Origin: Candidatus Moraniibacteriota bacterium
GTDB taxonomy: Bacteria; Patescibacteriota; Minisyncoccia; Moranbacterales; UBA1568
DNA: 64,000 nt
Direction of reading: 5' to 3'
Assembly: GCA_028688415.1 (NCBI GenBank)
Contig: JAQTYF010000001.1
Coordinates: 144,627-208,626 of the forward strand
Part shown: piece after piece, positions 6,152 to 26,145 of the stretch
Layout of the letters: each line of letters starts with the position of its first letter
How positions within the stretch are numbered: the first letter of the stretch is position 1
The notes under the pieces: generated by a model
What the model was told of the DNA's origin: nothing
The model's input: only the letters and a program-made list of their open reading frames with translations
Database searches by the model: none
Made by a program: the position numbers and the translations under genes

Positions 6152-6156
6152 GAATT

Positions 6157-6828: not shown

Positions 6829-7019
6829 ATACTTGTATTATATCAAAACTGCCCTAAGAAATGAAATAATAATAATTTGTACTGTATGTTAGGATTGATA
6901 TGAGTTTTTATAGTGGCATATTCTAAGGGTTGTTATGGTTCCATAGTATTTTTTGCAAAAAATGGGGATTTGGGGTAGAATATGAGTGTAAGAAGTGCCT
7001 TTTTGAGGTATTTTTTGTA

Positions 7020-7048
7020 TTGACAAATAGTAAAAAAAGTGATATAGT
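7020..7048 (+). promoter_or_regulatory. sigma70-like promoter TTGACA-17-TATAGT upstream of hss
   Basis: TTGACA at 7020-7025, 17-nt spacer, TATAGT at 7043-7048; 30 nt upstream of the 7079 start. Confidence 0.35.
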
Positions 7049-7078
7049 ATAAAATAAATTTATTTTTCGATAAACACT

Positions 7079-8506
7079 ATGATGACACAAGATTTCAAGA
7101 AAGACGTTCGATTCGATAAGAAAATGCTCATAATCGGTGGTGGATTTATCGGACAAGGAGTCTTGCCTCTCATACTGAAACATATCGATATCAAGCCAGA
7201 GCAGATATCAATCATCACTGCTGACGAACGAGGCAAAGAAACAGCTGCCTATTACGGTATACCGTTTTCTATCAATCCGATTTCCAAAGAAAATTATCGA
7301 GAAGTACTTGATCCACTTCTCTCTCCTGGAGATTTCTTGCTCAATCTCTCATCTGATATAGAGAGTACGCTTATCGTGGATTTCTGTAGCGAACGAGGGA
7401 TACTCTATCTCGATACTTGTATCGACTCATGGCTTGGAGAAAGTACCAACCCAGCACTTTCTGTTTCACAGCGATCTCTCTACAAATTGCGAGAACAAGC
7501 TATCAAGCTCAAAGAGAAATGGGGGAATACAAATGCTACTTCGGTACTCGCTCACGGAGCCAATCCTGGTATTGTATCGCACCTCGTGAAACAAGCACTT
7601 CTCAATATTGCAAAAGATGAAGGAAGAGATGTAGTCATCCCACAAACGAGAGAAGAATGGGCACGCCTCTCCCAATCACTCGGGATCCGGGCTATCCATG
7701 TCGCAGAGCGTGATACGCAGATTCCTACAGAACGAAAAAAAGTAGGTGAATTCATCAATACCTGGTCTATCGATGGATTGGTCGGTGAAGGACTCCAGCC
7801 AGCAGAGCTCGGATGGGGATCGCATGAGAAACATCTCCCTGTCGATGGGAGTAGACACACGTTTGGTGATCAGTCTGCTATCTATTTGAACAAACCAGGA
7901 GCATCAGTACGTGTCCGCACCTGGCTCCCTCTCGCTGGTCCACAGATCGGATATCTCATCACACACAATGAAGCTATTTCCCTCGCGAGTTATCTGACTC
8001 TCGGAACAGGGGAGAATCCAGAATATCGTCCGACAGTACACTATGCTTATCACCCTTGTGATGATGCGGTACTTTCGATTACAGAACTCGAAGAATCCAA
8101 TTGGAAAATTCAGGAACAAAAACGATCGATCACTGATGAAATTGTTTCGGGTATAGATGAACTCGGTGTTCTCTTGATCGGGAACAAACAGGGTGTGTAC
8201 TGGTTCGGATCACGACTCGATATCCATACTGCACGACAGCTCGCGCCATACAATTCTGCGACATCACTGCAGGTAGCTGCCGGTGTCGTAGCGGGGATGA
8301 TATGGGCGATGCGTCATCCAGAGAGTGGGATAGTCGAAGCAGAAGAAATGGATTTCAGAGAAGTGCTCGATATTGCTAGTCCATACTGGGGAGAGCTCGT
8401 CGGCGAATACAGTGATTGGGATCCGACGATAGGACGGAACACCCTTTTTCCCGAAGATATCGATACAGAAGATCCCTGGCAGTTCAAGAATTTCCGCGTA
8501 GTATAG
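7079..8506 (+). CDS. hss: homospermidine synthase (saccharopine-dehydrogenase-like NAD enzyme)
   Basis: 475 aa; N-terminal Rossmann motif MLIIGGGFIGQGVLPLILKH and overall length/organisation match bacterial homospermidine synthase. GC (~50%) clearly above neighbours. Confidence 0.65.
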   Translation: MMTQDFKKDVRFDKKMLIIGGGFIGQGVLPLILKHIDIKPEQISIITADERGKETAAYYGIPFSINPISKENYREVLDPLLSPGDFLLNLSSDIESTLIVDFCSERGILYLDTCIDSWLGESTNPALSVSQRSLYKLREQAIKLKEKWGNTNATSVLAHGANPGIVSHLVKQALLNIAKDEGRDVVIPQTREEWARLSQSLGIRAIHVAERDTQIPTERKKVGEFINTWSIDGLVGEGLQPAELGWGSHEKHLPVDGSRHTFGDQSAIYLNKPGASVRVRTWLPLAGPQIGYLITHNEAISLASYLTLGTGENPEYRPTVHYAYHPCDDAVLSITELEESNWKIQEQKRSITDEIVSGIDELGVLLIGNKQGVYWFGSRLDIHTARQLAPYNSATSLQVAAGVVAGMIWAMRHPESGIVEAEEMDFREVLDIASPYWGELVGEYSDWDPTIGRNTLFPEDIDTEDPWQFKNFRVV

Positions 8507-8534
8507 GCATTTATTGAGAATTTATAGAAAAGAA
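8484..8534. repeat. 51-bp perfect direct repeat, copy 1 (covers last 7 codons and stop of hss)
   Basis: ttcaagaatttccgcgtagtataggcatttattgagaatttatagaaaaga is identical at 8484-8534 and 10502-10552. Confidence 0.9.
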
Positions 8535-8586
8535 AAAAGAAGCAATGACGTAGCAATACTTCTTTAATTTCTTAAGTCAGTAGATA

Positions 8587-8865
8587 CTAACTTGAATAAA
8601 TGTGGTTCTTTCTATTGAACCTCGATTCGCTTCCGCAGATACGAACAGACCCATAGTTACCCTTGTTGCGATAATTCATCATTGAATCTGTTATCTCTGG
8701 AAGTTGTATTTTGAAATCAGCACTAAACTGAGTTTCAGCATTTGGTGCCGAAAGCATCATATACAGATTTCTTTCTGCGTAGTGTAAAGGAACGATATTT
8801 CTCATCAGTATTCTCCTGGTTAATTCAGAATTTCGGAAGGATGGCAACTTTCTTATAGCATGCAA
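8587..8865 (-). CDS. hypothetical small protein (92 aa) inside repeat-flanked cassette
   Basis: ORF only; no motif. Confidence 0.2.
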   Translation of the reverse strand: MHAIRKLPSFRNSELTRRILMRNIVPLHYAERNLYMMLSAPNAETQFSADFKIQLPEITDSMMNYRNKGNYGSVRICGSESRFNRKNHIYSS

Positions 8866-8986
8866 TAGTTATTTTGTACAATAGCTAGTAGGGGTATTTG
8901 TAATATTTTCACAGATTGACGAAAAACCGTTCTTATGATATTGTTTTCTTGCCATTATATCAATGGTGTTTTTAGGAGAATATCTC

Positions 8987-9106
8987 ATGAAGCAAGGCCT
9001 TTTCGGTGGTTCTGGTGGTCACGGCAATGGAAATGGTGGCTCTGGTGGCCAACGTGGTGGCGGTGGCGGTAGCACCGGTGGCGGTTCCGGGACTCGTGGC
9101 AAATAA
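8987..9106 (+). CDS. glycine-rich small peptide (39 aa), MKQGLFGGSGGHGNGNGGSGGQRGGGGGSTGGGSGTRGK
   Basis: Not in the ORF track (<60 aa). AGGAGA RBS at 8974-8979, 7 nt before ATG 8987; TAA stop at 9104-9106; lies 55 nt upstream of the M16 peptidase gene. Confidence 0.35.
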   Translation: MKQGLFGGSGGHGNGNGGSGGQRGGGGGSTGGGSGTRGK

Positions 9107-9161
9107 GTTCATCTGCCAAATCGCGTAATCTGCCAGTATGGCCTCGATCATCATTGTGTGA

Positions 9162-10460
9162 TTGAGGCCATTTTATTTTTTCGATAAATACTCTATACTT
9201 CAAACTATGCAAGTATCTCATTTCGAAAATATACTCGAAGGGAAGGGAGGGAAGTTCCTTTCCATACACTGTCCACATCTGCAGGTGTCGATTGCTTCTG
9301 TATGGTTCGAAGCTGGTTCGATATATGATCCTTTGGGCAAAGAAGGATTGGCACATTTTTTCGAACATTTGCTCTTGCAGAAAACAAAAAAAGAGCCTTC
9401 TCGAACACAGAGACTCTATACTCTCGAATCTCGTGGAATAGATTTTTACGCCTACACGAACAAAGACTCAGCTTACTATTACCATATTCAAGAACCAGAG
9501 AAAACAAAAGAAAGCCTCGGATTACTCGCGCTTGGTATTGCAGACTTCGTTTTCGATGAAACCGATATCGAGAAAGAGAGAAATGTGATTCTTTCAGAGA
9601 AAGACACGTATGATGGAAATCGGGATGAGAAAGTGTGGGATTTTCTCTTCGATGGTTTGTATCATGGAAGTGTTTTTGCTCATAATCCGTTCGGAGATGC
9701 CCATTCGATTAGTTCTATTACGAAAGAAGATATAGAAAAATTTTATCGAGAATACTATAATCTCGAGAACGCTGTGTGGGTCATTCTCTCTCCGCAAGTA
9801 TCTGGTGCAGATGAGAAAATACATCTTGAGGAAACCTTACGTCCTTTTGTTGATGCAAGCGAGAAAGTGTCAATCGATCATGATGCGAGAGAAACAATGG
9901 GAAGTGTCCATGATCAGAGGATAGTTGCCTCATCAGAAGATACATCATTTCTCGTAGCTGAAGCATTTCGTACGACGGATATTTTTGATCAAGAAAATAT
10001 TCTTCGTATCGATCTTCTCCGTTCTATCATCGCCTCTGGGTGGATTTCTTGGGCAAATAAAATACTACGTACCGAGAAAAGTCTCATCTATTGGGCACGC
10101 AGTGTTTTCAGTCAATTTCATGATAGGGGATATGTAGCTTTCCTCTTTGATGTGCAAAATTCTTCCAAGACTGAAGCCATCACCCTCTTCGACAGATTGA
10201 TAGAAGATTCGAAGGATATCGAAAAAATGAGTGAACATCTGGATGCACACAAGAACGCTTTTGCAACACGATTTCTCCGCGTGTATCATAACCCAGAAGA
10301 TCTCTTGTGGTGGTATGGATACCCTGCTTTATTTGGTATTGTCAAAGAGTCTCCCAAAGAATATTTGCATCAACTGAAACAATTGAAAGCAGAAGAGCTC
10401 GTTTCTGTCGCAGAAAAAACTTTTACGAAGGAAAAGAGGAGTGTCATAGAGATTAGTTAG
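9162..10460 (+). CDS. M16-family zinc peptidase (pitrilysin/insulinase-like), active-type subunit
   Basis: HFFEH inverted zinc-binding motif (HxxEH) near the N-terminus, plus downstream glutamate-containing region typical of M16. Alternative start at 9207 (MQVSHF). Confidence 0.75.
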   Translation: MRPFYFFDKYSILQTMQVSHFENILEGKGGKFLSIHCPHLQVSIASVWFEAGSIYDPLGKEGLAHFFEHLLLQKTKKEPSRTQRLYTLESRGIDFYAYTNKDSAYYYHIQEPEKTKESLGLLALGIADFVFDETDIEKERNVILSEKDTYDGNRDEKVWDFLFDGLYHGSVFAHNPFGDAHSISSITKEDIEKFYREYYNLENAVWVILSPQVSGADEKIHLEETLRPFVDASEKVSIDHDARETMGSVHDQRIVASSEDTSFLVAEAFRTTDIFDQENILRIDLLRSIIASGWISWANKILRTEKSLIYWARSVFSQFHDRGYVAFLFDVQNSSKTEAITLFDRLIEDSKDIEKMSEHLDAHKNAFATRFLRVYHNPEDLLWWYGYPALFGIVKESPKEYLHQLKQLKAEELVSVAEKTFTKEKRSVIEIS

Positions 10461-10501
10461 TATGTATGGTATTTCTGTGACATATAATCATTACTATGAA
10501 T

Positions 10502-10552
10502 TTCAAGAATTTCCGCGTAGTATAGGCATTTATTGAGAATTTATAGAAAAGA
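10502..10552. repeat. 51-bp perfect direct repeat, copy 2
   Basis: Identical to 8484-8534. Confidence 0.9.
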
Positions 10553-10585
10553 GCCATTGACAAGGCTCTTTTTTTAGTGTATAAT
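10549..10585 (+). promoter_or_regulatory. terminator-like hairpin (agagcc-attgacaa-ggctct + T7) overlapping a TTGACA-17-TATAAT promoter
   Basis: TTGACA at 10557-10562 in the hairpin loop, 17-nt spacer, TATAAT at 10580-10585; upstream of the membrane protein gene. Confidence 0.4.
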
Positions 10586-10643
10586 ATAAATTTGATAGTC
10601 AAATGGGTTGATTATTGAAAGTTTTTTGAAAAAGGAGTCGCAA

Positions 10644-11249
10644 ATGAAAGTAATGAAGAAATTTGTCGCTTTCATGGCGACACATAAAGAGCAGATTGCT
10701 CTCATTGCTACCGGACAAGGTGTGATGAGCGTGATCAATTGGCTCTATGATAATCCTCTTTACATAGGGGTTATCGCGTATTTCGGACCAGTGGTAGGCG
10801 GGGCAATGATGACAGCGGGTTCGCTTGTCATTTGTCTCGGCCTTATCCTCTTCTATAATAAGAAGGGTGTAGACTGGCTTGGAGTAGGAGCACTTGACGC
10901 GGTGAAGGAGATTTCTCTGGAATACGCCAAGAAGCTCGTTGAATGGAGGTCAGATTCGATTTTTGGTAAGATAGCATACTTCGTATTCTATCTTCCGATT
11001 CAGCTGATTTTCATTCTTGCACATCTTGTGAATCACAAGGTGTGGGGTGGTGTAGTAGCATTTGTGTTACTTTCCATCTTCACAGACCCATTCGTGACGA
11101 CTGCCTATTCTCGTCACGGAAATTACGGCCCGATGAAGGTTCGTGATTGGGTGGTATTTTTCGGAAGTGTCGTGCTCAGCAATGGGTACTGGATATTCCG
11201 GACCACAGTGGTCATCGAGGTAGCGAAGGCCATTTGGAAGTTTGTTTGA
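10644..11249 (+). CDS. hypothetical integral membrane protein
   Basis: Several hydrophobic segments; AAAGGAG RBS 7 nt before ATG 10644. Confidence 0.5.
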   Translation: MKVMKKFVAFMATHKEQIALIATGQGVMSVINWLYDNPLYIGVIAYFGPVVGGAMMTAGSLVICLGLILFYNKKGVDWLGVGALDAVKEISLEYAKKLVEWRSDSIFGKIAYFVFYLPIQLIFILAHLVNHKVWGGVVAFVLLSIFTDPFVTTAYSRHGNYGPMKVRDWVVFFGSVVLSNGYWIFRTTVVIEVAKAIWKFV

Positions 11250-11328
11250 GTGGAGGGTGAAACATCATTGATGTATCACCCTTTCATTTCATTTTACGAA
11301 AAACTTATTTTTTGCTAAAATACTTTCT

Positions 11329-12072
11329 ATGAAAGATGTTTTGAATACGAAAATATACACGAATTTGGATGAAGCGAAAGCAGAAATTCAAAGACGTTGG
11401 AAGGACGAAGAATTGAAGAAAAAAGTCTTAGAATATCTCGGGGATATTCCAGAGTTTTTTTGTGATGAACCGAGAGCTATTCTTCATAGACATATTACTT
11501 CTCCAAATATTGAATTTCAACAATTTATTGATCATTCAAGAGATTTCGGACTGAAACCGCTCGGTTTGGAATATACCAATGATATTTTTTTGACGAGAAA
11601 TCATGACAAGCTTGGATTAGGGAAGTTACCCTTTATCTCGGATAACAAAAAAAATGTACATTACAGGAAGGTGATCGATCTGATGGGGTCAGAGAAAAAA
11701 AAGTTTGCAGATATTCAAACATTATGGGGTGAAAATCTCATTGATTTTCATCATAATTTATTGAGAAATGCTTCATTTGACATAGAAACAGCAGATCTTT
11801 CATATTGGTACGGTAGACATGGAGATAATGCTCTCAATCGATATGAAAAATTATTAGCTTTTTTCGTCGCACATGGTGTTTTGTTTGAAAATTTCATTAC
11901 AGACGAGAAAGAATTAGCATTTGCGGAAACAGTTGTTTGTCCAGCTATTGAAAAAATTACTTCTCTTTTCGGAGTAAAACCTCTTATTGTTCCAGTTTTT
12001 GCTCTCGATCAAGAAATGGAGGATTCTTGGTGGTGCTATGAGCAAGAAAAAGAATCTTTCATGAGTCATTAG
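11329..12072 (+). CDS. hypothetical protein (247 aa)
   Basis: ORF with coding composition; no motif recognised. Confidence 0.45.
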   Translation: MKDVLNTKIYTNLDEAKAEIQRRWKDEELKKKVLEYLGDIPEFFCDEPRAILHRHITSPNIEFQQFIDHSRDFGLKPLGLEYTNDIFLTRNHDKLGLGKLPFISDNKKNVHYRKVIDLMGSEKKKFADIQTLWGENLIDFHHNLLRNASFDIETADLSYWYGRHGDNALNRYEKLLAFFVAHGVLFENFITDEKELAFAETVVCPAIEKITSLFGVKPLIVPVFALDQEMEDSWWCYEQEKESFMSH

Positions 12073-12099
12073 GAATAATTCATCATGTATTGTCATCTT

Positions 12100-12137
12100 A
12101 GTCCTGTCTGTTTCGATAACGGCAGGACTTTTTTTAT
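12100..12137 (+). terminator. rho-independent terminator
   Basis: Stem agtcctg/caggact with 16-nt loop, followed by TTTTTTTATTTTT. Confidence 0.6.
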
Positions 12138-12201
12138 TTTTGAAATGTGGTAGAATAAAAAATAGATTAAGAACATTTTGTAATAACATAAACATATTCC
12201 A

Positions 12202-12780
12202 ATGAATAATAAAGACGGATCAATTGATAATACAACTCTTTTTAAAAAATGTGATTTCTCAGATTTCAAGAAAGTACTTATTAGAATAAAACCGTCAGAA
12301 AGATTTGGAGGAATAGGCTTGTTTGCTATGAGGGATCTTGGAAAAGGGATGATGTTCGCAAAATGGGAACTTATGAATGAAGATCTTTTCTTTTCCTGGG
12401 ATGATTTTGAAAAAATTGATGAGGAATCCAAAGAAACTGTTCTGGATTTTTGTGCTGAGGCGGAAAATGGCTTCTATGCACCAACTGATATAAATTATAT
12501 ATCACTCCCTTGGCACATGAACCACTGTTGTGATGGAAACGTAGGATTTAATGAAAATGGTGATTTTATAACTATCAAAGACGTGAAAAAAGGAGAAGAA
12601 CTTTTCTATGATTATGGTTTGGTAATGTCGAATTCGAGATATAAGCTTGATTGTAAGTGCGGATCAGAAAATTGTCGAAAGATAATTACAGGTGATGATT
12701 GGAAAAATATCAATTTTCAGAAAGAAAATTATCAGTATATGTCTCCAGAAATAAAGGAGATGATAGATTCAATAAAATAA
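12202..12780 (+). CDS. SET-domain protein (putative protein-lysine methyltransferase)
   Basis: NHCCDGN (NHSCxPN motif), ELFYDYG (ELxxDY), and post-SET cysteines CKCGSENCRK. Confidence 0.7.
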   Translation: MNNKDGSIDNTTLFKKCDFSDFKKVLIRIKPSERFGGIGLFAMRDLGKGMMFAKWELMNEDLFFSWDDFEKIDEESKETVLDFCAEAENGFYAPTDINYISLPWHMNHCCDGNVGFNENGDFITIKDVKKGEELFYDYGLVMSNSRYKLDCKCGSENCRKIITGDDWKNINFQKENYQYMSPEIKEMIDSIK

Positions 12781-12787
12781 AAAAAAT

Positions 12788-14512
12788 ATGGATTTTAATA
12801 TAATTACGAACAGTGAGATTTGTATTGCGAATACACAACAATACTTAACAGGACTCGTCTATTATTCTCATTTTCCGATGATCATACTGTCTTTATTTTT
12901 TGGATTTTTTGTATTTTTAAAAAATAAAAGTTCGTTAGCGTCAAAATGTTTACTGGGTATTACGTTCTTCTTTTCTTTATGGCTTGTTTTTGATTTTATT
13001 TTGTGGAAAAGTAGCAATAGTAGTTTGCTTATGTTTTCTTGGGCTATACTAGGTGTATTTGAAGCACTCTTTTTCATTCTAGGTTTATATTTTATATATA
13101 CATTCATTGATAAAAAAGATGTTTCCAATAGTATAAAATTCATTTTTTTACTTCTTTCTTTGCCAGTTCTCTTTCTGACTCCAACGACATTTAACTTATC
13201 AAATTTTGATATCATAAATTGTGTTCCCGTTGAATCAGGGATATCTTTGGACTACGTTATTTCTTTGAAATTGATTATTTTATTGTGGATTTTTATTCTG
13301 TTGATAGTGAAATACCGGAAGCCTCCTGTAGACATATCAAGATTACAAATTTTTCTGTTAGGTTTAGGTATAATGTTGTTTCTATCTTCGTATTTTGTTT
13401 TGTCTTACGTTTCTGATTATTTGTACAATGCAGGTTATGAATGGGGGTATCAGGTTGAACAGGGTGGAATTCTCGCTATGGGTATTTTTCTTGGGTTTCT
13501 TAGTTATCTCATCGTTAAATTCAAGGCATTTGATATCAAACTGATCGGAGCACAAGCGTTGGTGTTAACACAATTTGCCCTTATTAGCTCAATGTTCTTT
13601 TTTGCCACGGTACTTATAAGTCGCGTCCTCATTGGAGTGACACTCTTTGGTACGACTATTGCTGGTTGGTATCTGATCCGATCAGTGAAGGCAGAAATCA
13701 AACGCAAGGAAGAGCTCGAAAAGATATCGCATACACTGATGGTGGCGAATGAACGATTGAAAGAGCTCGATGCCGCCAAATCAGAATTCATCTCTATTGC
13801 ATCACACCAGCTCCGTACACCGCTCACGGCTATCAAAGGTTACCTCTCACTCTTGCTCGAGGGCTCCTATGGGCCAGTCTCTCCTCAGGTACTCGATATT
13901 CTGAACAAACTCTACGGTGTGAACAATCGTCTCGTCCATCTCGTGGAGGATCTGCTCAATGTCTCTCGTATCGAAGCAGGGCGTATCCAATACAGTTTTG
14001 CTCCGACACAGATCGAGCCTATCCTCGTTGAACTCGTCGATATGTTCCTTTCTCCAGCTCAAGAAAAGAATCTGACTATTGATATCCATCTCTCCAAGCA
14101 TCCGCTCCCTCTCATCACGATGGATCCAAACAAAATCAAAGAAGTGGTGTCCAACCTCATCGACAATGCAGTGAAATACACCAAAGTAGGTGGTGTGACA
14201 GTCACACTCCAGAACACGCCTGAGGTCGCCCGTATCATCATCTCGGATACTGGTATCGGTATTCACGAAAGTGACAAGAAGAACCTCTTCCAGAAATTCC
14301 TTCGAAGCAAGGAAACAACGAAAATGGTAGTCTCTGGAGCGGGTCTCGGTCTCTACGTCGGCAAGAGTTTTATCGAAGCACACGGAGGCAAGATCTGGGC
14401 AGAATCCGATGGTCCAGATAGAGGCTCTCGCTTCATCATCGAACTCCCGATCAAAAACACTCATATTCAGATCGGTACGTCTGATGAACCTACTTCTGTC
14501 GAAAAAGAGTAA
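12788..14512 (+). CDS. membrane sensor histidine kinase (multi-TM N-terminus, HisKA + HATPase_c)
   Basis: H-box SHQLRTPLTAIKGYLSLL; N, G1 and G2 boxes (DNAVKYT, DTGIGI, GAGLGL). GC rises in the kinase-domain half. Confidence 0.85.
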   Translation: MDFNIITNSEICIANTQQYLTGLVYYSHFPMIILSLFFGFFVFLKNKSSLASKCLLGITFFFSLWLVFDFILWKSSNSSLLMFSWAILGVFEALFFILGLYFIYTFIDKKDVSNSIKFIFLLLSLPVLFLTPTTFNLSNFDIINCVPVESGISLDYVISLKLIILLWIFILLIVKYRKPPVDISRLQIFLLGLGIMLFLSSYFVLSYVSDYLYNAGYEWGYQVEQGGILAMGIFLGFLSYLIVKFKAFDIKLIGAQALVLTQFALISSMFFFATVLISRVLIGVTLFGTTIAGWYLIRSVKAEIKRKEELEKISHTLMVANERLKELDAAKSEFISIASHQLRTPLTAIKGYLSLLLEGSYGPVSPQVLDILNKLYGVNNRLVHLVEDLLNVSRIEAGRIQYSFAPTQIEPILVELVDMFLSPAQEKNLTIDIHLSKHPLPLITMDPNKIKEVVSNLIDNAVKYTKVGGVTVTLQNTPEVARIIISDTGIGIHESDKKNLFQKFLRSKETTKMVVSGAGLGLYVGKSFIEAHGGKIWAESDGPDRGSRFIIELPIKNTHIQIGTSDEPTSVEKE

Positions 14513-14575
14513 TCTATAGAATGAAATTATTGTTGATAGATAATATGAAATAAAGTTCTATATAATAGAAAATAT

Positions 14576-16603
14576 ATGAACATTTGTGATAATTTTGATA
14601 GGATTAGCACACTCTCTAATAGAGATTTAGTGTCGCGTGGAGCGCCGTATTTGTTCAGACTTTTTACTATTGCAATAAAAGAATTCTCAAGTTTGTTTTC
14701 TATTGCTGAAGACGATGAACAAAAATGTTTTTATTTTTATGTTAGTAAAGATAAAAACATAATATTTAAATCAAGTGCGGTTAGTTTTTCGTGCGATAGG
14801 TATATTATAAATGCAGATTCAAAACTTTTTGTTAGTGTAAAGAATGGTGCTTGGAGGACATTTAATTTTGATGATTTTAAGCACTTACTATTAATTATAA
14901 ATAAAAATTATAAAATAAATAAAGATTTTGACATTAATAATCAAATCAAAAAAGTTATCCAACAGACAAGATATTATATTTTTATAACGGAACGTGTCTT
15001 TGATACTAAAATAAACTTAAAGAGATATAGTCGAAATCATGATTTTTTTAGTGACTTACTTTTCAATTCACATAAACGGATTCTGGCTTTTTCATTGGTT
15101 GACGCTTTCGGTGTAACTTACGGACACTTAGATCACCCAACCCCATATCCGTATTCAAGTGGATTGAAACAAAGTCTATTGGGAGCTGATCCTTTTTTAT
15201 CATTTATTAGAGAGATGGATAAGATAATCAAATTGAATGATGACGAATTGAAGTCGATTATTAAAAAACCTGATGTCTTACAGAAGAAATTTGATGTATC
15301 ATCTAATGGAATTAGTCTGATTTTAGTGCCTAGATATTTCTTCGTGGAAGATGAACGCCTGCACCTAGAAGAAATCTCTTCAATCCTTAATTCTACAATT
15401 AAAAATCTTTACGGACGCGAGATTGATTATGATAAAAGTAAGAATTACTTGCTATTTATTCCTGAGATTGAGCGTGGTTTTGCATTATCGAGCAAGTCAC
15501 TTTTATTTCAGGAATGTAAAATATTATCAGAGAGTCTTTTTGGTATTTCCTCAAGTTCGGGAAGAAGCATGATTGTGCCTGTAGTTCTAGAAAATAATAA
15601 GAATAGTTTTCTATTCCTAAAAACATCATGGCCTGATATCATAAAGACAGCCTACAATAGAGGGTTGAGGATTAGTGTAGTTGAATGGTATTTGGTATGT
15701 TACGAAATCTTCAGCTCATTTTCGTCAAATGAGTTTGAATTTTTCTCGGAAGAAATCTTTAGTCCGATTTTAAAAGATCATGATGTAACAAAATATCTAA
15801 CTTTTATTTCAAGAAAACTTTTAATGTTAGAAAGAGATAAAAATGAATTCGTTTTGCCGCTAATAGGGTTGGTTGTTCCTAATCACGCATATCCTTTTGA
15901 TGAAACTCCTCTGGTTCATTTTATGAAGCTGAGTCAAAATCCAGAGCTATTCTTGAGATGTCTAGTAGACTGTATAACGAAAGCAATTATATCGCAGCTT
16001 CTCAGTAAGGGTGTTTATCATAGTTCACATCTTCAGAACTGTTGTATAATTTTCAAAAAAAATGGCAAAGACATCTTGCCAATAAAAGCCCTTTTAAGAG
16101 ATGGAGACATACGGGTTTGCGAAGATTATTCCTCATTACTTTCTATTGAGGAAATTAAGACAATTAGTAATTTGAGGAAAAAAAGAAATAAAATTTATCA
16201 TGAAAAAAAGTTTTATAAGCATCTTTTTCATAACATAATTAATGAAAACTTTGGTAATATTGAGCAGTGTTTATTGATAGATAACCAATTTTCATCAGAG
16301 TTTTTTTGGCGATTAGTCCGTTCTAGTTTTGAAGATGCAATCAAGAGGAATGTAAAAGTTTTGAAAACAAGGAATGAATATAGAAAAATTCACGGAGTTA
16401 TAGTAAAAAATTTTACGGAAACAGTTTTTAAGGGAAGCGGTTACTCAGTGAATTTTTTTCGAATGAGTTTTTTTGGAGTAAAGGAAAACTTTATTAAAGT
16501 ACACAATCCTTTTTTAGGAAGAAAATCTTTTGAATTATACACAGCCAGGAGTCAGAGTATTACGGATACAAAAACCAATGAAGAAGAGTCACTTCGTCTT
16601 TAA
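14576..16603 (+). CDS. hypothetical large protein (675 aa), very AT-rich
   Basis: Uninterrupted ORF at ~30% GC. C-terminal third contains SHLQN...LRDGDIRV, faintly reminiscent of IucA/IucC-type ligase motifs (unconfirmed). Confidence 0.5.
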   Translation: MNICDNFDRISTLSNRDLVSRGAPYLFRLFTIAIKEFSSLFSIAEDDEQKCFYFYVSKDKNIIFKSSAVSFSCDRYIINADSKLFVSVKNGAWRTFNFDDFKHLLLIINKNYKINKDFDINNQIKKVIQQTRYYIFITERVFDTKINLKRYSRNHDFFSDLLFNSHKRILAFSLVDAFGVTYGHLDHPTPYPYSSGLKQSLLGADPFLSFIREMDKIIKLNDDELKSIIKKPDVLQKKFDVSSNGISLILVPRYFFVEDERLHLEEISSILNSTIKNLYGREIDYDKSKNYLLFIPEIERGFALSSKSLLFQECKILSESLFGISSSSGRSMIVPVVLENNKNSFLFLKTSWPDIIKTAYNRGLRISVVEWYLVCYEIFSSFSSNEFEFFSEEIFSPILKDHDVTKYLTFISRKLLMLERDKNEFVLPLIGLVVPNHAYPFDETPLVHFMKLSQNPELFLRCLVDCITKAIISQLLSKGVYHSSHLQNCCIIFKKNGKDILPIKALLRDGDIRVCEDYSSLLSIEEIKTISNLRKKRNKIYHEKKFYKHLFHNIINENFGNIEQCLLIDNQFSSEFFWRLVRSSFEDAIKRNVKVLKTRNEYRKIHGVIVKNFTETVFKGSGYSVNFFRMSFFGVKENFIKVHNPFLGRKSFELYTARSQSITDTKTNEEESLRL

Positions 16604-16710
16604 TTTTTTGAGAATAAAGATAATTGATTAAAAAGCTAGATACGTAGAATTTTTTTTTGAGTTCCGGAAGGAGAAAGTAAGTTGTTAATATATTTTAATG
16701 AATCATTCCT

Positions 16711-17610
16711 ATGACCGAGCTAGAATCAATTAAAAAAATACGGTTTGTCCTTACGGATTTTTGTAATTATCAATGTAGATTTTGTCATAATGAAGGAACT
16801 CCAACAAAGAACACACGGTTTTTGGATAAGGAGAGTATTTTTTCGTTAACGAGTGTGGCTAAAGATTTAGGTATTAAAAAAATTACTCTAACAGGAGGCG
16901 AACCATTACTTCACCCAGAAATTGTAGCTATTGTAGACGGTATCAATGCTATATATCCAGAAGCTATCTTAGGGATGACAACTAATGGGATGTTATTTGA
17001 TAAAAATAAATTTGCTACGATTATTACTAATCTTAGTCGGTTACGTTTAAATTTTCAAAGTTTAGATGAAAAAGTTTTAAAATATATTTGTGGTAATGGC
17101 GCTAATATTAGTAAAGCGCTTTTGATGATTGATGACGTGAGGAAACTGAATCCTGATTTAAATATTTGTTTGAATTTTGTTTTAACAACTTATAACAAAG
17201 AATCACTTTCTGATGTTATAAAATTTGCAATTAAAAATAATCTAGATGTAAAATTGTTAGAGTATATGGCTCTCAATAAAGATCTTTATGTTGAAGTCAA
17301 ATATGCTAAAGATATATTAGAGTCTCTTCGACCTATTAAAAAGTATAAAGACTATCAGGACGATGATATTTATATGTTTACAGGATCTTCAAGTCGGATA
17401 CGTTTATGCTATTCATTTTGCAATGGTTTTAGATGTAAATCTTGTCGTGAATGTGGTGAAATTAGATTGGCACCAGGGTTAACCCTTAAGCACTGTTTTG
17501 ATGAGAGAATTGAAGAGGTTGATATTAGAAAAGAGTTGCTAGAACAGAATCTGGAATCAATAAAAAAGAAGATCATTTCAATTGATCAAATTAAGGGAAG
17601 ATTGCTCTGA
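16711..17610 (+). CDS. radical SAM enzyme, MoaA-like (GTP 3',8-cyclase family)
   Basis: CNYQCRFC (CX3CX2C) in TDFCNYQCRFC context like MoaA TDRCNLRCxYC; ITLTGGEPLL; MTTNGML; C-terminal CRECGEIRLAPGLTLKHC = CX2CX13C auxiliary-cluster motif characteristic of MoaA. Confidence 0.75.
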   Translation: MTELESIKKIRFVLTDFCNYQCRFCHNEGTPTKNTRFLDKESIFSLTSVAKDLGIKKITLTGGEPLLHPEIVAIVDGINAIYPEAILGMTTNGMLFDKNKFATIITNLSRLRLNFQSLDEKVLKYICGNGANISKALLMIDDVRKLNPDLNICLNFVLTTYNKESLSDVIKFAIKNNLDVKLLEYMALNKDLYVEVKYAKDILESLRPIKKYKDYQDDDIYMFTGSSSRIRLCYSFCNGFRCKSCRECGEIRLAPGLTLKHCFDERIEEVDIRKELLEQNLESIKKKIISIDQIKGRLL

Positions 17611-17664
17611 CACGTCTAGTTATTATATGATTTTAGAAATTTCTTTTCTAAAATAAAATTATTT

Positions 17665-18144
17665 ATGACCTCTGTATTTAAGAAGATATTTAACTATGAG
17701 GACGATCTCTCAGTATTCAAAGGAATAGATGCGAATAGAATTGCTTGTAATACGATAGTTTTGTGTGGTAATAAAATACTATTAGGTTGTCGGCGAAAGA
17801 AATATGCAAAAGGGATGTGGTGTTTGCCCGGTGGCCACTTAAACCTTGGGGAGAGTTTAGATAAATGTTTCTCTAGAGAACTTTACGAAGAAGTTGGTGT
17901 CGTCGGTAGTGGACAAGTTCCATTTTTGATAGTAGAAGAAGTTTCTGAAAAATATATATTTTATCACTTTTTTGCGTATTTAAGAATTAAAAGAAAACGA
18001 GCAGGTTGGTTTGTAAATAAAGAACCAAAAAATTTTTCTTGTTGGCTCCTTTTTGATTATAAAGATATTCCTGATGAAATGATTACATCTCATAGATTGG
18101 CTGCTGATTATCTTTTTTCGAAGAATCGTGTTATAAGAATATGA
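17665..18144 (+). CDS. Nudix hydrolase
   Basis: Nudix box GGHLNLGESLDKCFSRELYEEVGV (Gx5Ex7REUxEExGU). Confidence 0.75.
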   Translation: MTSVFKKIFNYEDDLSVFKGIDANRIACNTIVLCGNKILLGCRRKKYAKGMWCLPGGHLNLGESLDKCFSRELYEEVGVVGSGQVPFLIVEEVSEKYIFYHFFAYLRIKRKRAGWFVNKEPKNFSCWLLFDYKDIPDEMITSHRLAADYLFSKNRVIRI

Positions 18145-18216
18145 TGATTAGTTGGAAGGAAATTGTGTAGCCGATTGCTATCGTATAGAGTGATTGTCGC
18201 TTGTTATGTTGAAGAG

Positions 18217-19887
18217 TTATATTAATAAAGATAGTCTGGAGAGAACCCTGTCTTTCCCCATCGTTTGCATAATGGAATACAAGTCAGGGGTCTGTATTTT
18301 TCCTGTTAATAAAACTCGGAAGATCCTTGCTATATCCGTGATATTTCCTTTATATCTTTCTGGATTTTCCTTAAATATCTTCATATTTTCCGCATAATCA
18401 TGGGTTTTGGAAATTTTTTTTATTTTTTCAAACCACTCTTCTTTTGAGTCTTTTTCATTGTAGGATTTAATGAATGAATCTACTACTGTTTTGATGGTGG
18501 CAGAATCAATATTTGAAAGAAGGTGCACTGCAGTATCTTTTGTAATATTAAAATTTTGATCAAAGAAATACTCAATTTCTGTTCTTACATCAAACCATTT
18601 AGCAATATCTTTTCTACCACCTGTTCCACTATTTCTTTCTATGTTTAATATCTTTTTTGTATAATCAGCATCTTTTTTCATTGTTTTAGCAAGCTCTGGA
18701 TCATATTTGTTGGTCCAGCTTAAAGCTTTTTCATAAACTTCTTCAGCTGAATACCTTGCAATAATCCCTTTGCTCGTGTCATTTAGTTTATCAAAATCAA
18801 ATAGGGGACCGCTTGAGCCTGATAGTTTTTTTTGTGTCAGAAGGAATTCACGATTATTTTTATCTGGATTGGCCTTTCGCCAGTTTTCGAAATTTGAATT
18901 CGCTAAATTCAATAAGTATTCTATAACGGCATCTTCAGGGTATCCCTGTTCGGTGTAATATGCAACATTTGCTTCAGGGTCTTTCCTTTTGCTTAATTTT
19001 CTTTTTGAAGAATTCTCGATTTTCTGAATTGGAAATATATGTCCATATTTTGGAGCCTGCCATCCCATAGTTCTAAATAATTGTAAGTGTAATGGTAGCG
19101 AAGAAAACCATTCGTTTCCACGGATTACATGGGTAGTTCTCATTAAATGATCGTCAATGATATGAGCCATGTGGTAGGTTGGTAGACCATCAGATTTTAT
19201 TATTACCATATCTTGGTCATTTTCGGGTAACTCTCTGCCTCCCAATACAATGTCATTAACGAAAATTTTATTATTAATATTGCCACAAGATTTAAATCTA
19301 ATGACAAATTCTCTTTTTCCATCTAATGCTATTAGAATCTCTTGATCAGATTTATCGCGCCATTTCGCCCATTGTTGATAGTATCCAGGCTTAATGCCAC
19401 GAACCGCCTGTATTTTATGTATTTCCTCAAGTTCTTCGTTAGAGCTAAAGCATGGGTAGGCTAATCCTTTTTCTACTAGTAATTTCGCATAGGCCTGATA
19501 TATTTCTGTGCGTTTGCTTTGTTTGTATGGTCCGTAAGAGCCGATTTCTGTCCCTGAGGTTGTTTGTCCTTCGTCTGTGTTAATGTTGTAACTTTTGAGA
19601 GCGGAAGCAATCAGATTTGAAGCACCTTCGACTTCCCTCTTTTTGTCAGTATCTTCGATACGAAGATAAAAAACACCATCTGTCTGATGTGCCAATCTTT
19701 CAGATATTAGAGCAGTGTAGATACCGCCTATATGCATGAATCCCGTTGGACTAGGGGCAATTCGTGTCACCATTGCACCCTCCTTGAGTTTTCTAGGTGG
19801 ATATCGTTTTTCAATAGCCTCTATAGTTGGTAGTTGTTTAGGAAACAACTTCTCAAGAATCGTCCTTTTGTTTTTTTGATTGTTCAT
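18217..19887 (-). CDS. gltX: glutamyl-tRNA synthetase
   Basis: RIAPSPTGFMHIGG (HIGH), FYLRIEDTD, KLSKRK (KMSKS); 556 aa. Confidence 0.9.
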   Translation of the reverse strand: MNNQKNKRTILEKLFPKQLPTIEAIEKRYPPRKLKEGAMVTRIAPSPTGFMHIGGIYTALISERLAHQTDGVFYLRIEDTDKKREVEGASNLIASALKSYNINTDEGQTTSGTEIGSYGPYKQSKRTEIYQAYAKLLVEKGLAYPCFSSNEELEEIHKIQAVRGIKPGYYQQWAKWRDKSDQEILIALDGKREFVIRFKSCGNINNKIFVNDIVLGGRELPENDQDMVIIKSDGLPTYHMAHIIDDHLMRTTHVIRGNEWFSSLPLHLQLFRTMGWQAPKYGHIFPIQKIENSSKRKLSKRKDPEANVAYYTEQGYPEDAVIEYLLNLANSNFENWRKANPDKNNREFLLTQKKLSGSSGPLFDFDKLNDTSKGIIARYSAEEVYEKALSWTNKYDPELAKTMKKDADYTKKILNIERNSGTGGRKDIAKWFDVRTEIEYFFDQNFNITKDTAVHLLSNIDSATIKTVVDSFIKSYNEKDSKEEWFEKIKKISKTHDYAENMKIFKENPERYKGNITDIARIFRVLLTGKIQTPDLYSIMQTMGKDRVLSRLSLLI

Positions 19888-20010
19888 ATTTTATGCTATA
19901 ATTACTTGTCGAGGAATGTTGCAATGATAAGTTGTGTTTATTTTAGATTACATTAAATCCTTGAAAAGTAAAGCTTTGTTCTCGTAGAAGTAGAAATTAG
20001 TCTTATATGA

Positions 20011-20180
20011 GCAAGAGTTTCATCGAAGCACACGGAGGCAAGATCTGGGCAGAATCCGATGGTCCAGACAAAGGATCGCGATTTATCATCGAACTCCCGA
20101 TCAAAAACACTCATATTCAGATCGGTACCTCTGATCAACTAGCAGAAGCGAATGGCAGAGAAGTTGAAAAAGAAAAGTAA
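20011..20180 (+). pseudogene. remnant of a histidine-kinase 3' end (last ~45 codons), homologous to 14361-14488
   Basis: 128 bp ~92% identical to the 3' end of the HK gene; encodes SFIEAHGGKIWAESDGPDKGSRFIIELPIKNTHIQIGTSD with no upstream ORF (stops in frame). Confidence 0.7.
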
Positions 20181-21164: not shown

Positions 21165-21835
21165 ATGTATAATCCCGAGTCATTATATGATGTTAGCGAA
21201 GAGTACATCCGAGAGAGTCAGATACTTGATTCAAAAAACAGGCCAATCTGTTTGGTTTGGGTGAACGGTCAACAATTCAATTTTTATGTTGGACCAGACG
21301 CGCATGGATTTATTTTTGAGGATGAGGAGGGCGAGTACATCAACGTTGGGAATGAGAAGAGGTGGTGGCGCGGAACATTAGAGCCAATTCCTAATATTCT
21401 GAGACCCGACAGATTGAATGAGTTTGGGTTTTGTTCTATCAAGCCGGATGCCTTTGAAAGAGGCTTGGCTGAATTCATCAGGGCAGAAATTGAGTCGATG
21501 GGACTTGAAATTATTGGAAAAAAAGCGGTGTTAATTGAAAAGTCAGAATTATTTCGGCTTTACCCGTACTTTTTTGAATCCGAGTGGGAATCAGTTTTGA
21601 TAAAGTACTTTTGCTCGGCACCAACATTGTTTATGATTCTCAGAGGCAATCAGTGACAGAAAATCTTCTCAAGCTGAGAAAAGCAATGAGACTGAAATTT
21701 AGGAAGTCTGAAGAACACCCGATTCGAAACATGTTCCATTGCTCAGATTCACAACTGGAGGCTATTCGCGAAGCGAGTATATTTTTTGGAGCAGAGGAAT
21801 TACTTAAATTGGTCGGTTGTTCCGAAGACCTGTAG
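21165..21835 (+). pseudogene. nucleoside-diphosphate-kinase-like gene with ~90-aa N-terminal extension, interrupted by a -1 frameshift near 21645-21656
   Basis: Frame A has FCSIKPDAFERGL...GLEIIGKK...YFCSAPTLFMILRG (NDK IIKPD, SGP..V.EG). Frame B has PIRNMFHCSDSQLEAIREASIFF (NDK N.IHGSDS...AxREIxxFF). The two frames overlap 21584-21656. Confidence 0.5.
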
Positions 21836-23249: not shown

Positions 23250-23687
23250 TTATTTTTGGCTGTAACCTACTAAATGGTGACTATTTTTTTTGAGGATAGC
23301 GAAAAGGCTAGGAAGATATTCAACAGTTTTTATGTTGATAGGTATTTTATCTATAGATACCCATTGATGCTGGTCGTGATCTTCTTTATTTAAGAGTATA
23401 TTAGTCTCATTGCATACGCCAATAAATATAAGACGAATAAATTGTTTGTTCTTTTTTCTATCGATATTTGATGTGTAATGAAACAGGCTAAGGTTTTGAA
23501 TATCAATCCCTGTTTCTTCTTTGGTTTCTCGAATAGCTCCTTCTTCTGGATCTTCCCCGTCGTCAAGTGTTCCTCCTGGGATATCCCAAAGACCAGGTAG
23601 AGTGTCCTCGCTAAGTGATCTCCGAATAAGGAGCACCTCTCGGTTCCCATTGAAGAGAACAGCATGTACAATTATTCCTTTGTCCAT
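23250..23687 (-). CDS. Nudix hydrolase
   Basis: Nudix box GGTLDDGEDPEEGAIRETKEETGI. Confidence 0.75.
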   Translation of the reverse strand: MDKGIIVHAVLFNGNREVLLIRRSLSEDTLPGLWDIPGGTLDDGEDPEEGAIRETKEETGIDIQNLSLFHYTSNIDRKKNKQFIRLIFIGVCNETNILLNKEDHDQHQWVSIDKIPINIKTVEYLPSLFAILKKNSHHLVGYSQK

Positions 23688-23776: not shown

Positions 23777-24130
23777 ATGGATATTGATTTAGCAAGAAAT
23801 TTTTGTAAGGAGGCATTTATAAAATTTGAATTGTGGGGCTTTTTCGACAGAAGTGGTAATGTCAAAAAGTTTTCAAATGATGTACACAAAGAAGTTGTCT
23901 ATGGATGTGAACAGCGACGGCCCTTAGAAAGGATGCATATAAATTTTAAGGGAGATGTTATTTTGTGCTGTATGGATTGGAAATGGCAGCATAAATTAGG
24001 AAATGTGAACGAGAGGTCTTTAGAAGAAATATGGAATTCTGAGATTTATAATGAATATCGTAAGTCTATTTACAATAATGGATCAGGAACACGAACAGGT
24101 CTATGTAAGAAATGCAAGTTATCGTTATGA
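23777..24130 (+). CDS. SPASM-domain-only fragment (C-terminal part of a radical-SAM maturase); possible gene remnant
   Basis: CEQRRPLERMHINFKGDVILCCMDWKWQHKLGNVNERSLEEIWNSEIY...GLCKKCK matches the SPASM pattern (C..G.v.pC...lGNi...sl.eIW...C..C). No radical-SAM core upstream. Confidence 0.45.
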   Translation: MDIDLARNFCKEAFIKFELWGFFDRSGNVKKFSNDVHKEVVYGCEQRRPLERMHINFKGDVILCCMDWKWQHKLGNVNERSLEEIWNSEIYNEYRKSIYNNGSGTRTGLCKKCKLSL

Positions 24131-24768
24131 TGATTTCATTTGATGGCAATGTTTATGTGGGAAAAACGACTTTAATTAAGTCATTATCTCAGAGATATGG
24201 TTTTTCTACCATTGATGAACACTCTTTTTTTATTAATGATATTCAACAGAAAGATTATTATGAGAATGAGTATGTTAACACGCAGGCACGATATCTTGAT
24301 GTAGATATCCAGAGAGGAAAACTTCTTAGAAATGGCATCAATCTTTTAGACAGGAGTTTTGTTTCTGTAAGTGCCCATGTTTATGCTATTTATAAATTGG
24401 GGTTGGTTGATATAAGAAGTTCATATCTTGAACTCTTGGTATCTAAGGTGGGGGAAATATTAATACCAGACATATTCGTTTTTGTAAGTTGTGAGTATGA
24501 GACTTCGCGTGCAAGATGTTTTGAGAGTGGTAATAGAAAACAAACGGGGGATTTATATCTTTCCGAACAATATTTCAGGTTCGTGAAAATATTTAATGTT
24601 AATTTTATCTCGATGGTTAATGGCCATGTTATTGATACAGAGAGCATCTTTACGGATACATCGTGTGTTGATATGTACAATCGAATTGTTCTCAATTCAA
24701 GAAATAAAAAAATAACAAAAGACACAGTAGCGATGATTGATAACATTCGAAACTGTCTTGATCTATAA
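24112..24768 (+). CDS. P-loop kinase, deoxynucleoside/nucleotide-kinase-like
   Basis: Walker A FDGNVYVGKTTLIKSL; LLDRSFVS resembles the dNK/dGK ERS motif. Confidence 0.5.
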   Translation: MQVIVMMISFDGNVYVGKTTLIKSLSQRYGFSTIDEHSFFINDIQQKDYYENEYVNTQARYLDVDIQRGKLLRNGINLLDRSFVSVSAHVYAIYKLGLVDIRSSYLELLVSKVGEILIPDIFVFVSCEYETSRARCFESGNRKQTGDLYLSEQYFRFVKIFNVNFISMVNGHVIDTESIFTDTSCVDMYNRIVLNSRNKKITKDTVAMIDNIRNCLDL

Positions 24769-24861: not shown

Positions 24862-26145
24862 ATGAAGGAGAAAATCATGAGTATAACCTTTGGACTTGAT
24901 TTTGGAACTACGAACTCTGTTTTGGCAATTTTGCAAAATGGCCAAGTAAAAGTTGCGAGTATTGATCCGAGCGGGGCTGTAGAAGAAACCCTGAAATCAG
25001 TTCTTTTCTTCGACGAAGAAAATTATGTGGCCGTTGGTCAAGAGGCTATCAACCAATACGTTGGTTACGGTGGTGTGTACGGTCGCTTCATGCAGTCGAT
25101 TAAGGCGTTTTTGCCAAACAAAAGTTTCACTGAGACATATGTTTTTGGTAAGCGTTACGAGATTGAAGATCTGATAGCCTTAATTTTGAAAGCTATCAAA
25201 CATCATGGTGAGCTTTATGTCGGTCACGTTGTGGACACAGTAATGATGGGACGTCCTGTTATTTTTTCGGAGGACAAGGAGTTAGATCTTTTGGCCGAAG
25301 AAAGATTGCGAGCCGCCGCCCTGCGTTCTGGGTTTACGAATATCCATTTCGTATATGAGCCTATTGCTGCTACGCTTGCTTACGAATCACAACTCAAGTC
25401 AGGTGAGGAAAAACTTGTTCTTATGGGTGATTTTGGTGGTGGCACCTCGGATTTTGTTGTTATGCGTCTTTGCGGCCGTGACACGCCGAAAAACAATCGG
25501 AAGGATGATATTCTCTCCATTGGGGGGGTGTATATTGCTGGTGATGCTTTCGATGCTTCTATCATGTGGCACAAAATAGCTAAACACTTCGGCAAAGGGG
25601 CAAAAGTCTATGGTGCCTCGAATCGTCAAATTCTTGATATGCCGATTTGGATTCCGCAGACACTTTGTCGGTGGCATATGATTCCGCAGCTTCGTAGCAA
25701 GAAAACACTTCAGATTATCCAATCTCTTCATGGTGTATCTGACGAAGATCGGAAGGCTTTGGAGAATCTGCGTACGCTCATTATGGAAAATCTTGGGTAC
25801 TTGCTGTTTAGGGCCATTGAAAAAGCGAAGCGGGAGTTGTCTGATAACGAATCTGCCATTATTGAATTTTCCGAGAAGGGGGTTGTAATTCACGAGGAAA
25901 TTACAAGGGAGGAATTTGAAATCATGGCTGACGATAACTTTCAGAAGATTAACGCTTGTGTAGATGAAACATTGGTTCGCGCAGGCGTGTCTTTGTCAGA
26001 TATCGATACCGTCCTGTTGACCGGCGGGTCATCGTTTATTCCAAGAATCCGAAGAATTTTTTCGAGTAAATTCGGAGAGGAAAAAATAATATCGATTGAT
26101 GCGTTTATGAGCGTAGCCTATGGGCTCGGCCTCTGCGCATCATAG
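24862..26145 (+). CDS. Hsp70-family ATPase, nucleotide-binding domain only (YegD-like)
   Basis: FGLDFGTTNS (phosphate 1), GDFGGGTSDF (phosphate 2), LLTGGSSFIPRIRR (adenosine motif); no substrate-binding domain. Confidence 0.65.
   Translation: MKEKIMSITFGLDFGTTNSVLAILQNGQVKVASIDPSGAVEETLKSVLFFDEENYVAVGQEAINQYVGYGGVYGRFMQSIKAFLPNKSFTETYVFGKRYEIEDLIALILKAIKHHGELYVGHVVDTVMMGRPVIFSEDKELDLLAEERLRAAALRSGFTNIHFVYEPIAATLAYESQLKSGEEKLVLMGDFGGGTSDFVVMRLCGRDTPKNNRKDDILSIGGVYIAGDAFDASIMWHKIAKHFGKGAKVYGASNRQILDMPIWIPQTLCRWHMIPQLRSKKTLQIIQSLHGVSDEDRKALENLRTLIMENLGYLLFRAIEKAKRELSDNESAIIEFSEKGVVIHEEITREEFEIMADDNFQKINACVDETLVRAGVSLSDIDTVLLTGGSSFIPRIRRIFSSKFGEEKIISIDAFMSVAYGLGLCAS

Follow-up and report, generated by a model that had tools for sequence, protein, structure and literature searches.

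Among radical S-adenosylmethionine (SAM) enzymes, viperins, AbmM, BlsE and DesII all act on nucleotide substrates, and SuiB and SkfB are peptide maturases. In MoaA, the critical features are Arg17, Arg266 and Arg268 together with a C-terminal GG, whose free carboxylate is inserted in the active site and docks on Arg268. Coordination of GTP to the auxiliary cluster depends mainly on Arg266; the R266A variant is dead, and Lys is the sole substitute (2025 study, PMC12625886). A compact nucleoside pathway is represented by the thmABC cluster of Photorhabdus (4'-thiothymidine), the three genes of which encode a radical SAM enzyme along with a nucleoside kinase and a self-resistance NTPase (PMC12691670). 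Here we analyzed a three-gene locus within a 64,000-nt stretch (the window, whose positions serve as coordinates throughout) of contig JAQTYF010000001.1 from a Candidatus Moraniibacteriota bacterium. The locus encodes a MoaA-derived radical SAM protein, a ligase with the fold of the NRPS-independent siderophore (NIS) synthetases, and a Nudix pyrophosphohydrolase. At roughly even odds (about 0.5), we read this trio as the minimal core of a rare accessory biosynthetic module of the Candidate Phyla Radiation (CPR; Moranbacteria-type), the product of which would be a nucleotide-derived, amide- or ester-linked metabolite. The observations behind this reading are the fold and homology of each protein, the catalytic residues kept or lost, the linkage of the genes across about 10 loci, their co-deletion and their adjacency to gltX; from these we infer the substrates, the product and the order of the steps.

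MoaA is the nearest relative of the 299 amino acid radical SAM protein. All the radical SAM motifs quoted in a preliminary description of this DNA were found in the translation, including T15-D-F-C18-N-Y-Q-C22-R-F-C25 at the N-terminus, TGGEPLL at residues 61-67 and MTTNG at residues 89-93. C245, C248 and C262 (CX2CX13C) align with the auxiliary-cluster cysteines of MoaA, and three further cysteines lie upstream, giving six in the C-terminal domain. The MoaA models are the best family matches for the protein, yet all three equivalog models score far under their cut-offs (TIGR02666, 135.3 vs. 284; TIGR02668, 133.8 vs. 325; NF001199, 117.5 vs. 231); in Pfam, Radical_SAM gave 86 bits and Mob_synth_C 16.7, with a cut-off of 37.4. 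The best PDB fold match of the AlphaFold model (predicted local distance difference test score, 87) is S. aureus MoaA (1TV7/2FB3; template modelling (TM) score, 0.80), followed by SuiB, viperins, AbmM, BlsE and DesII, with SkfB and CteB-type maturases also present. AbmM (8WM2; entry identity shown by the fold search) is also the second-best PDB sequence match. Ordinary MoaAs are at most 30% identical to the protein, and a gap separates them from its own clade of about 14 sequences (54-75% identity, one at 34%).

The preliminary description had credited the protein with every MoaA hallmark, which does not hold. The equivalents of Arg17 and Arg268 are kept as R11 and R252, but the Arg266 position is occupied by E250, invariant in 12 aligned clade members. 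In addition, about 35 residues before the C-terminal end of the clade are deleted relative to MoaA, and its proteins end in IDKIKG plus 3-8 more residues (IKGxxx), whereas the aligned MoaAs all end in GG. The alignment also showed R71 of MoaA replaced by T, K163 by C, and N124/S126/D128 by R/N/Q; we take these MoaA residues to be the ones that contact GTP in the 2006 MoaA-GTP structure, R71 and K163 being phosphate-binding. Because Arg266 has become Glu, the GG tail is absent and aligned GTP-site residues are changed, we predict that the enzyme descends from MoaA but has had its substrate site rebuilt and, by the defining features, is not a GTP 3',8-cyclase. The label of an orphan MoaA-like protein is accordingly half right: the protein descends from MoaA and has no molybdenum cofactor (Moco) context, but it is not a MoaA by the features that define one.

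The absence of Moco genes nearby, which had also been claimed, was borne out. None appeared in Pfam scans of 27 window proteins (about 1-35 kb), and tblastn of the whole window with E. coli MoaC, MoaD, MoaE and MogA probes (approximate sequences, adequate for homologue detection) was negative. The flanks of the related loci searched likewise contain no moaC, moaD, moaE or mogA, and moeA was found neither in the window nor in those flanks. The genomic partners of the enzyme are the ligase and the Nudix protein instead.

The 675 amino acid protein had been presented as an unknown. Profile search, alignment, fold and hhalign identify it as most likely a divergent ligase of the NIS-synthetase superfamily (IucA/IucC-like), predicted to be active and adenylating. 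It has the three-domain NIS synthetase fold, and its characterised structural relatives are all siderophore synthetases (AsbB, IucA, IucC, SbnC, AcsD, and NcdF), to which it is 10-13% identical; its length exceeds that of the solved NIS synthetases by about 80-130 residues. The protein is too divergent for family models: Pfam IucA_IucC (PF04183) gave no match, FhuF (PF06276) reached 18.8 bits, under its threshold of 25.2, and no match was obtained in NCBIfam, PADLOC or PHROGs, nor in a PDB sequence profile search with the ligase family. The homology surfaced only through the fold search and an exhaustive profile search of 1.84 billion representatives, which returned three full-length ligase representatives plus fragments; the next five weak matches (E 1e-6 to 6e-4) were all IucA_IucC+FhuF proteins, and hhalign of the ligase family against these five gave a probability of 97.5%. 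When five members of the family were aligned jointly with three IucA_IucC proteins, the invariant elements were GHxxHP, SxR, K349, T358..R362 (TxxxR), R413, HxQN, RDxG and a C-terminal NP, which presumably form the ATP/Mg site, as in the AcsD and IucA structures. Because of this homology to IucA/IucC and the invariant motif residues, we consider an active adenylating enzyme the most likely assignment.

The ligase is the founding member of a tiny protein family. A word-indexed search of 5.8 billion clusters recovered nine members, and in total the family numbers 9-15 sequences, all from related CPR lineages; scanning GTDB genomes with the alignment of the ligases revealed no relative, and no contig in a scan of viral contigs carries the ligase. 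In addition to its divergence and extra length, the ligase differs from the NIS synthetases in its company, which consists of nucleotide-type partners in CPR genomes and not of siderophore or transport genes.

The third protein of the trio matches Pfam NUDIX (PF00293) with 48.1 bits (threshold 21.1) and has an intact Nudix box. It is a cluster-specific orthologue, sharing 54% and 42% identity with its counterparts in two related clusters (L008 and L001, respectively) as against 33% with the other Nudix protein of the window. With its radical SAM enzyme beside a nucleotide (tri)phosphatase able to give self-resistance, the locus resembles thmABC in its compact nucleoside-antibiotic logic. It differs in that the radical SAM enzymes of thmABC and AbmM are not orthologous to that of the window, and in that the trio has no kinase, its third enzyme being the NIS-type ligase.

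The three genes lie co-directionally between a histidine kinase gene and gltX, as had been described, and are low in GC (ligase, 30.6%; radical SAM, 30.6%; Nudix, 32.9%) relative to the window (39.5%). The ligase and radical SAM genes are among the three lowest-GC genes of the 42 window genes measured, and GC at third codon positions in the trio is 22-26%. The spacers between the genes are 54-107 nt long and contain no conserved small open reading frame (ORF). An Rfam scan of 11-22 kb detected no riboswitch or RNA, and no tRNA gene was found across the whole window.

The radical SAM and ligase genes recur together in about 10 CPR metagenome loci. The expectation that the trio would be conserved as such thus stands for these two genes, and for the Nudix gene mostly but not always. 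The simplest arrangement, found in L001 and L013, comprises the radical SAM gene (seen in L001), the ligase, the Nudix gene and gltX on the plus strand. Larger versions occur in L008, L009, L014 and L016, with the order radical SAM, AsnRS-like, ligase, B12-radical SAM, methyltransferase, Nudix and gltX (in either orientation); L014 and L016 are short contigs, each showing part of the L008-type order. L004, to which L017 is related, carries the ligase, radical SAM, AsnRS-like, methyltransferase and HAD genes followed by gltX on the minus strand, and L010 carries Nudix, radical SAM and AsnRS-like genes before the contig ends. None of the added genes is present in the window. One encodes an AsnRS catalytic core lacking the anticodon domain and another a B12-radical SAM methyltransferase of the PhpK family; the others specify a class I (SAM) methyltransferase and a HAD protein closest to the pyrimidine nucleotidase YjjG. 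A transposase or recombinase is found near some of the loci.

One true member, L021, emerged from a second GTDB scan aimed at the radical SAM clade, the other 79 genes being ordinary radical SAM or MoaA genes; L021 is therefore the only clade match in GTDB genomes. Compared with L001, a 3.1-kb segment is reduced in L021 to about 100 bp, with loss of the 3' part of the radical SAM gene (two-thirds of the gene), the ligase and the Nudix gene; a stub of 108 amino acids of the radical SAM protein now adjoins an intact gltX. This clean deletion shows that the three genes were lost as a unit and are dispensable.

Two further loci deserve mention. L011 (positions 3-1847) encodes the closest ligase homologue (71% identical), with a degraded N-terminus and an in-frame stop; this probable pseudogene, on a contig of 3x coverage, borders immediately on gltX, neither a radical SAM nor a Nudix gene intervening. 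In L007 (positions 10001-12787), a radical SAM gene of the clade adjoins a gene for a 580 amino acid CYTH-uridine kinase-CYTH fusion, and neither a ligase gene nor gltX lies within 10 kb; the uridine kinase neighbor hints at pyrimidine nucleotide chemistry.

In all seven loci in which the end of the cluster is visible, gltX is the immediate neighbor. These cluster-linked copies occur in both orientations and in two sequence types, 31-35% identical to each other, and their other flanks differ. The gltX gene of the window is of a common CPR type, with more than 100 homologues at 55-72% identity among the matches listed, and does not come closer to the cluster-linked copies than to the unlinked; in close relatives without the cluster, gltX is found in unrelated contexts. 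In L018 (positions 1295-10244), two gltX paralogues stand in tandem (69% and 48% identity to that of the window); their neighbors encode two methyltransferases, a Nudix protein, a 194 amino acid protein, a weakly GlutR_N-like protein and a PP-loop-like ATPase of 330 amino acids with the motif SGGxDS. The region resembles another kind of accessory cluster linked to gltX, and such clusters may be a wider CPR theme.

The AT-rich island had been drawn as ending at 18216. We found that the low-GC block (5.65 kb, 31.9% GC) comprises the trio and gltX (35.4% GC; flanking genes, 39.6% and 42.2%) and reaches about 20010. It is bracketed by a 129-nt direct repeat of the 3' end of the kinase gene (93% identical), and tblastn of the kinase gave a match at 20004-20174. 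The repeat suggests insertion into a former kinase-regulator operon. The bracket is seen again in L021 (JBDRHN010000037.1, 1066-6198), where the C-terminal 225 amino acids of a 739 amino acid kinase are 77% identical to a 302 amino acid ORF downstream of gltX, with the radical SAM stub and gltX enclosed by the two. Such bracketing matches the outcome expected if a circle that carried a kinase fragment had integrated by a single crossover, an event that may have brought in the block.

In the biosynthetic module that we propose, the radical SAM enzyme would act on a nucleotide through a 5'-deoxyadenosyl radical, rearranging or modifying its sugar or base, and the nucleotide would be handled otherwise than GTP is in MoaA; the neighbors in related loci weakly hint at a pyrimidine nucleotide. 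The Nudix enzyme would strip pyrophosphate from the substrate or the product (NTP to NMP), either as a pathway step or as protection of the producer from a toxic triphosphate. The ligase would adenylate a carboxylic acid and couple it to an amine or hydroxyl, yielding an amide- or ester-linked conjugate. In the larger versions of relatives, the module would gain another adenylating ligase (the AsnRS core), methylation by a B12-radical SAM enzyme and by a SAM methyltransferase, and a nucleotidase of the HAD type. We favor a biosynthetic role because a radical enzyme whose lineage counts viperins and AbmM among its other close relatives, two adenylating ligases, two kinds of methylase and a (pyro)phosphatase are the content of a compact nucleoside-conjugate cluster. 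The preliminary description had offered a modified-nucleotide or cofactor unit as its fallback, and this comes closer to the evidence, given the ligase, methylase and phosphatase genes added in relatives; the nucleotide substrate that it assumed is plausible.

Several points weigh against this reading. The nucleotide specificity is drawn solely from relatives and neighbors, and NIS synthetases have so far been tied to siderophore pathways, so that a metal chelator is a possible product. Promoter and terminator scans gave chance-level results only and do not support an operon structure, and no transporter or regulator is consistently linked to the genes across the loci. Finally, with so small a ligase family from related lineages, the conservation could partly reflect shared ancestry.

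The constancy of gltX raises a special case of the biosynthetic explanation, in which the chemistry is directed at glutamyl-tRNA synthetase (GluRS): an aminoacyl-adenylate-like nucleoside conjugate would inhibit GluRS and the adjacent gltX would be an insensitive copy, or else the Glu-tRNA that this synthetase makes would be used. We judge this unlikely, though by no means negligible. Gene clusters for inhibitors of aminoacyl-tRNA synthetases (aaRS) commonly carry a resistant aaRS, as with serS for albomycin and ileS for mupirocin, and here gltX adjoins the cluster in every informative locus, in two orientations and two sequence types, shares one bracketed low-GC block with the trio (and is bracketed likewise in L021), keeps unrelated contexts in close relatives free of the cluster, and occurs as a tandem pair inside the other Nudix/methyltransferase cluster of L018. 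On the other hand, the gltX of the window is of the ordinary CPR type and no closer to linked copies, gltX survives the deletion of the cluster in L021, as a housekeeping gene would, and the loci may all stem from one ancestral insertion beside gltX. A more elaborate scenario, distinctly unlikely in our estimation, is that trio and gltX form a mobile CPR cassette that enters histidine kinase genes by recombination and makes a nucleoside-amino acid antimetabolite against GluRS, with its own tolerant gltX. An improbable alternative starts from the ligase, whose characterised structural relatives and weak FhuF match are compatible with a siderophore-like metallophore: the ligase would condense an amine with citrate or 2-oxoglutarate, and a building block would be furnished or modified by the radical SAM and Nudix enzymes. 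A second, AsnRS-like ligase would suit a poly-amide chelator. Yet the identity to NIS synthetases is low, IucA_IucC is silent, and no locus contains siderophore precursor, export or uptake genes (linked genes for a hydroxylase, decarboxylase, acyltransferase, exporter or uptake are absent throughout); the linked partners, namely the Nudix enzyme, the HAD nucleotidase and the MoaA-like radical SAM enzyme, suggest nucleotides.

The preliminary description had preferred an antiviral module, whose radical SAM enzyme would make a chain-terminating nucleotide in the style of the prokaryotic viperins (pVips), which act on NTPs. The similarity of the radical SAM core to pVips is reflected in matches to PADLOC pVip models (76.7 and 64.7 bits), a candidate-system Nudix model matches the Nudix box, the distribution is patchy and accessory, and mobile-element genes occur near some loci. 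We nevertheless consider this function quite improbable: the PADLOC matches are generic domain matches, the NCBIfam viperin model NF038283 scores 73.5 against a cut-off of 180 where the MoaA models reach 135, and the TM scores to viperins are 0.63-0.69, below that to MoaA. Moreover, viperins lack an auxiliary cluster, which this enzyme has; the ligase matches neither PADLOC nor PHROGs and is found on no viral contig; the flanks in the window and in related loci are housekeeping genes, with no defence genes or defence-island context; and the genes added in relatives encode biosynthetic tailoring enzymes. Synthesis of Moco or a pterin, whether canonical or by salvage, would require a working GTP 3',8-cyclase, with the Nudix protein acting as a neopterin-triphosphate pyrophosphatase. 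MoaA is indeed the top family and fold, the R17 and R268 equivalents, both clusters, TTNG and GGEP are retained, and the Nudix protein of L008 weakly matches dihydroneopterin triphosphate diphosphatase (23.9 bits vs. a cut-off of 103). This is very improbable all the same, in view of the sub-threshold scores of the MoaA equivalog models, the invariant Glu in place of an arginine that only Lys can substitute, the missing GG and about 35 residues, the lack of moaC, moaD, moaE and mogA in the window and in the related flanks searched, and the linkage of the clade to ligase and Nudix genes instead. [quoted passage not shown] SuiB, SkfB and CteB-type maturases are among the structural matches (TM score about 0.65) and the C-terminal domain has six cysteines, but CX3CX2C begins at residue 18, leaving no N-terminal peptide-recognition domain, the short gaps hold no conserved small ORF, none of the loci examined has a conserved precursor peptide gene, and MoaA is clearly the better match.

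A literature search on the gene combination, MoaA-like nucleoside enzymes and CPR gene clusters yielded no description of such a trio system. Its parts come from known superfamilies; what is new is the combination of two strongly diverged enzyme families in a biosynthetic cluster. If the biosynthetic reading is true, the MoaA scaffold, hitherto bound to Moco, would have been repurposed through exchange of the GTP-selecting arginine and the C-terminal gating tail, and the NIS-synthetase fold would extend beyond siderophore synthesis. Ultra-small CPR bacteria, usually thought to be without secondary metabolism, would then own a dedicated and possibly mobile small-molecule pathway, for which the constancy of gltX offers a concrete target hypothesis. 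Should the cassette scenario be true, it would be the first CPR pathway for an aaRS inhibitor, and its ligase the first of the NIS family to act, alongside a MoaA-derived radical SAM enzyme, on a nucleotide scaffold. With about 10-15 sequences among billions of proteins, the family is very rare; it is unannotated in Pfam, NCBIfam, PADLOC and PHROGs, and would be missed by standard genome mining. The features of the locus are listed in Table 1.

Table 1. Positions of the trio, its sequence motifs, the adjoining genes and the direct repeat in the 64,000-nt window.
Feature	Position	Strand	Basis or remark
7TM histidine kinase gene	12788-14512		Upstream neighbor of the trio
Direct repeat, copy 1 (3' end of the histidine kinase gene)	14361..14489		
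NIS-synthetase-fold ligase gene (675 aa)	14576..16603	+	ORF, translation
Ligase GHxxHP motif (G183-P188)	15122..15139	+	Invariant with bona fide IucA/IucC
Ligase S328-x-R330 motif	15557..15565	+	Invariant in the family and IucA/IucC
Ligase H485-x-Q-N488 and R508-D-G510 motifs	16028..16105	+	Invariant in the family and IucA/IucC
Twin-cluster radical SAM gene (299 aa)	16711..17610	+	ORF, Pfam, NCBIfam, fold
CX3CX2C radical SAM cluster motif (C18, C22, C25)	16762..16785	+	Invariant in the clade
C-terminal Cys-rich region: CX2CX13C (C245, C248, C262), extra C233, C237, C242, E250	17407..17496	+	
Nudix pyrophosphohydrolase gene (159 aa)	17665..18144	+	ORF, Pfam
Nudix box G57-V79 (G57-x5-E-x7-REUxEExGU), intact	17833..17901	+	Read from the translation
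gltX (glutamate--tRNA ligase)	18217..19887	-	Convergent to the trio, same low-GC block
Direct repeat, copy 2 (relic kinase 3' end with its own stop codon)	20011..20139		Just upstream of the response regulator gene (20260)

Beyond the trio, many nucleotide and small-molecule kinase genes surround the locus in the window. An ORF of 163 amino acids at 21165-21835 contains only the first half of a nucleoside diphosphate kinase domain (residues 89-162) and is overlapped in another frame by an ORF of 83 amino acids; this may mark a nucleoside diphosphate kinase gene that has been split or frameshifted. The second Nudix gene lies at 23250-23687 on the minus strand, followed by a deoxynucleoside-kinase-like gene at 24112-24768. 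A CYTH gene is located at 28638-29213, APH-family kinases are encoded at 2058-2867 and 29564-30499, and a CTP synthase at 33097-34749.

Just upstream of the histidine kinase gene, at 11329-12780, are genes for a 247 amino acid orphan without a family match and a 192 amino acid SET-domain protein, with GC contents of 34% and 32%, respectively; SET domains are uncommon in bacteria. At 24862-26145 the window encodes an atypical actin/Hsp70-like ATPase of 427 amino acids, which matches only part of the HSP70/MreB fold (Hsp70 profile positions 256-370).

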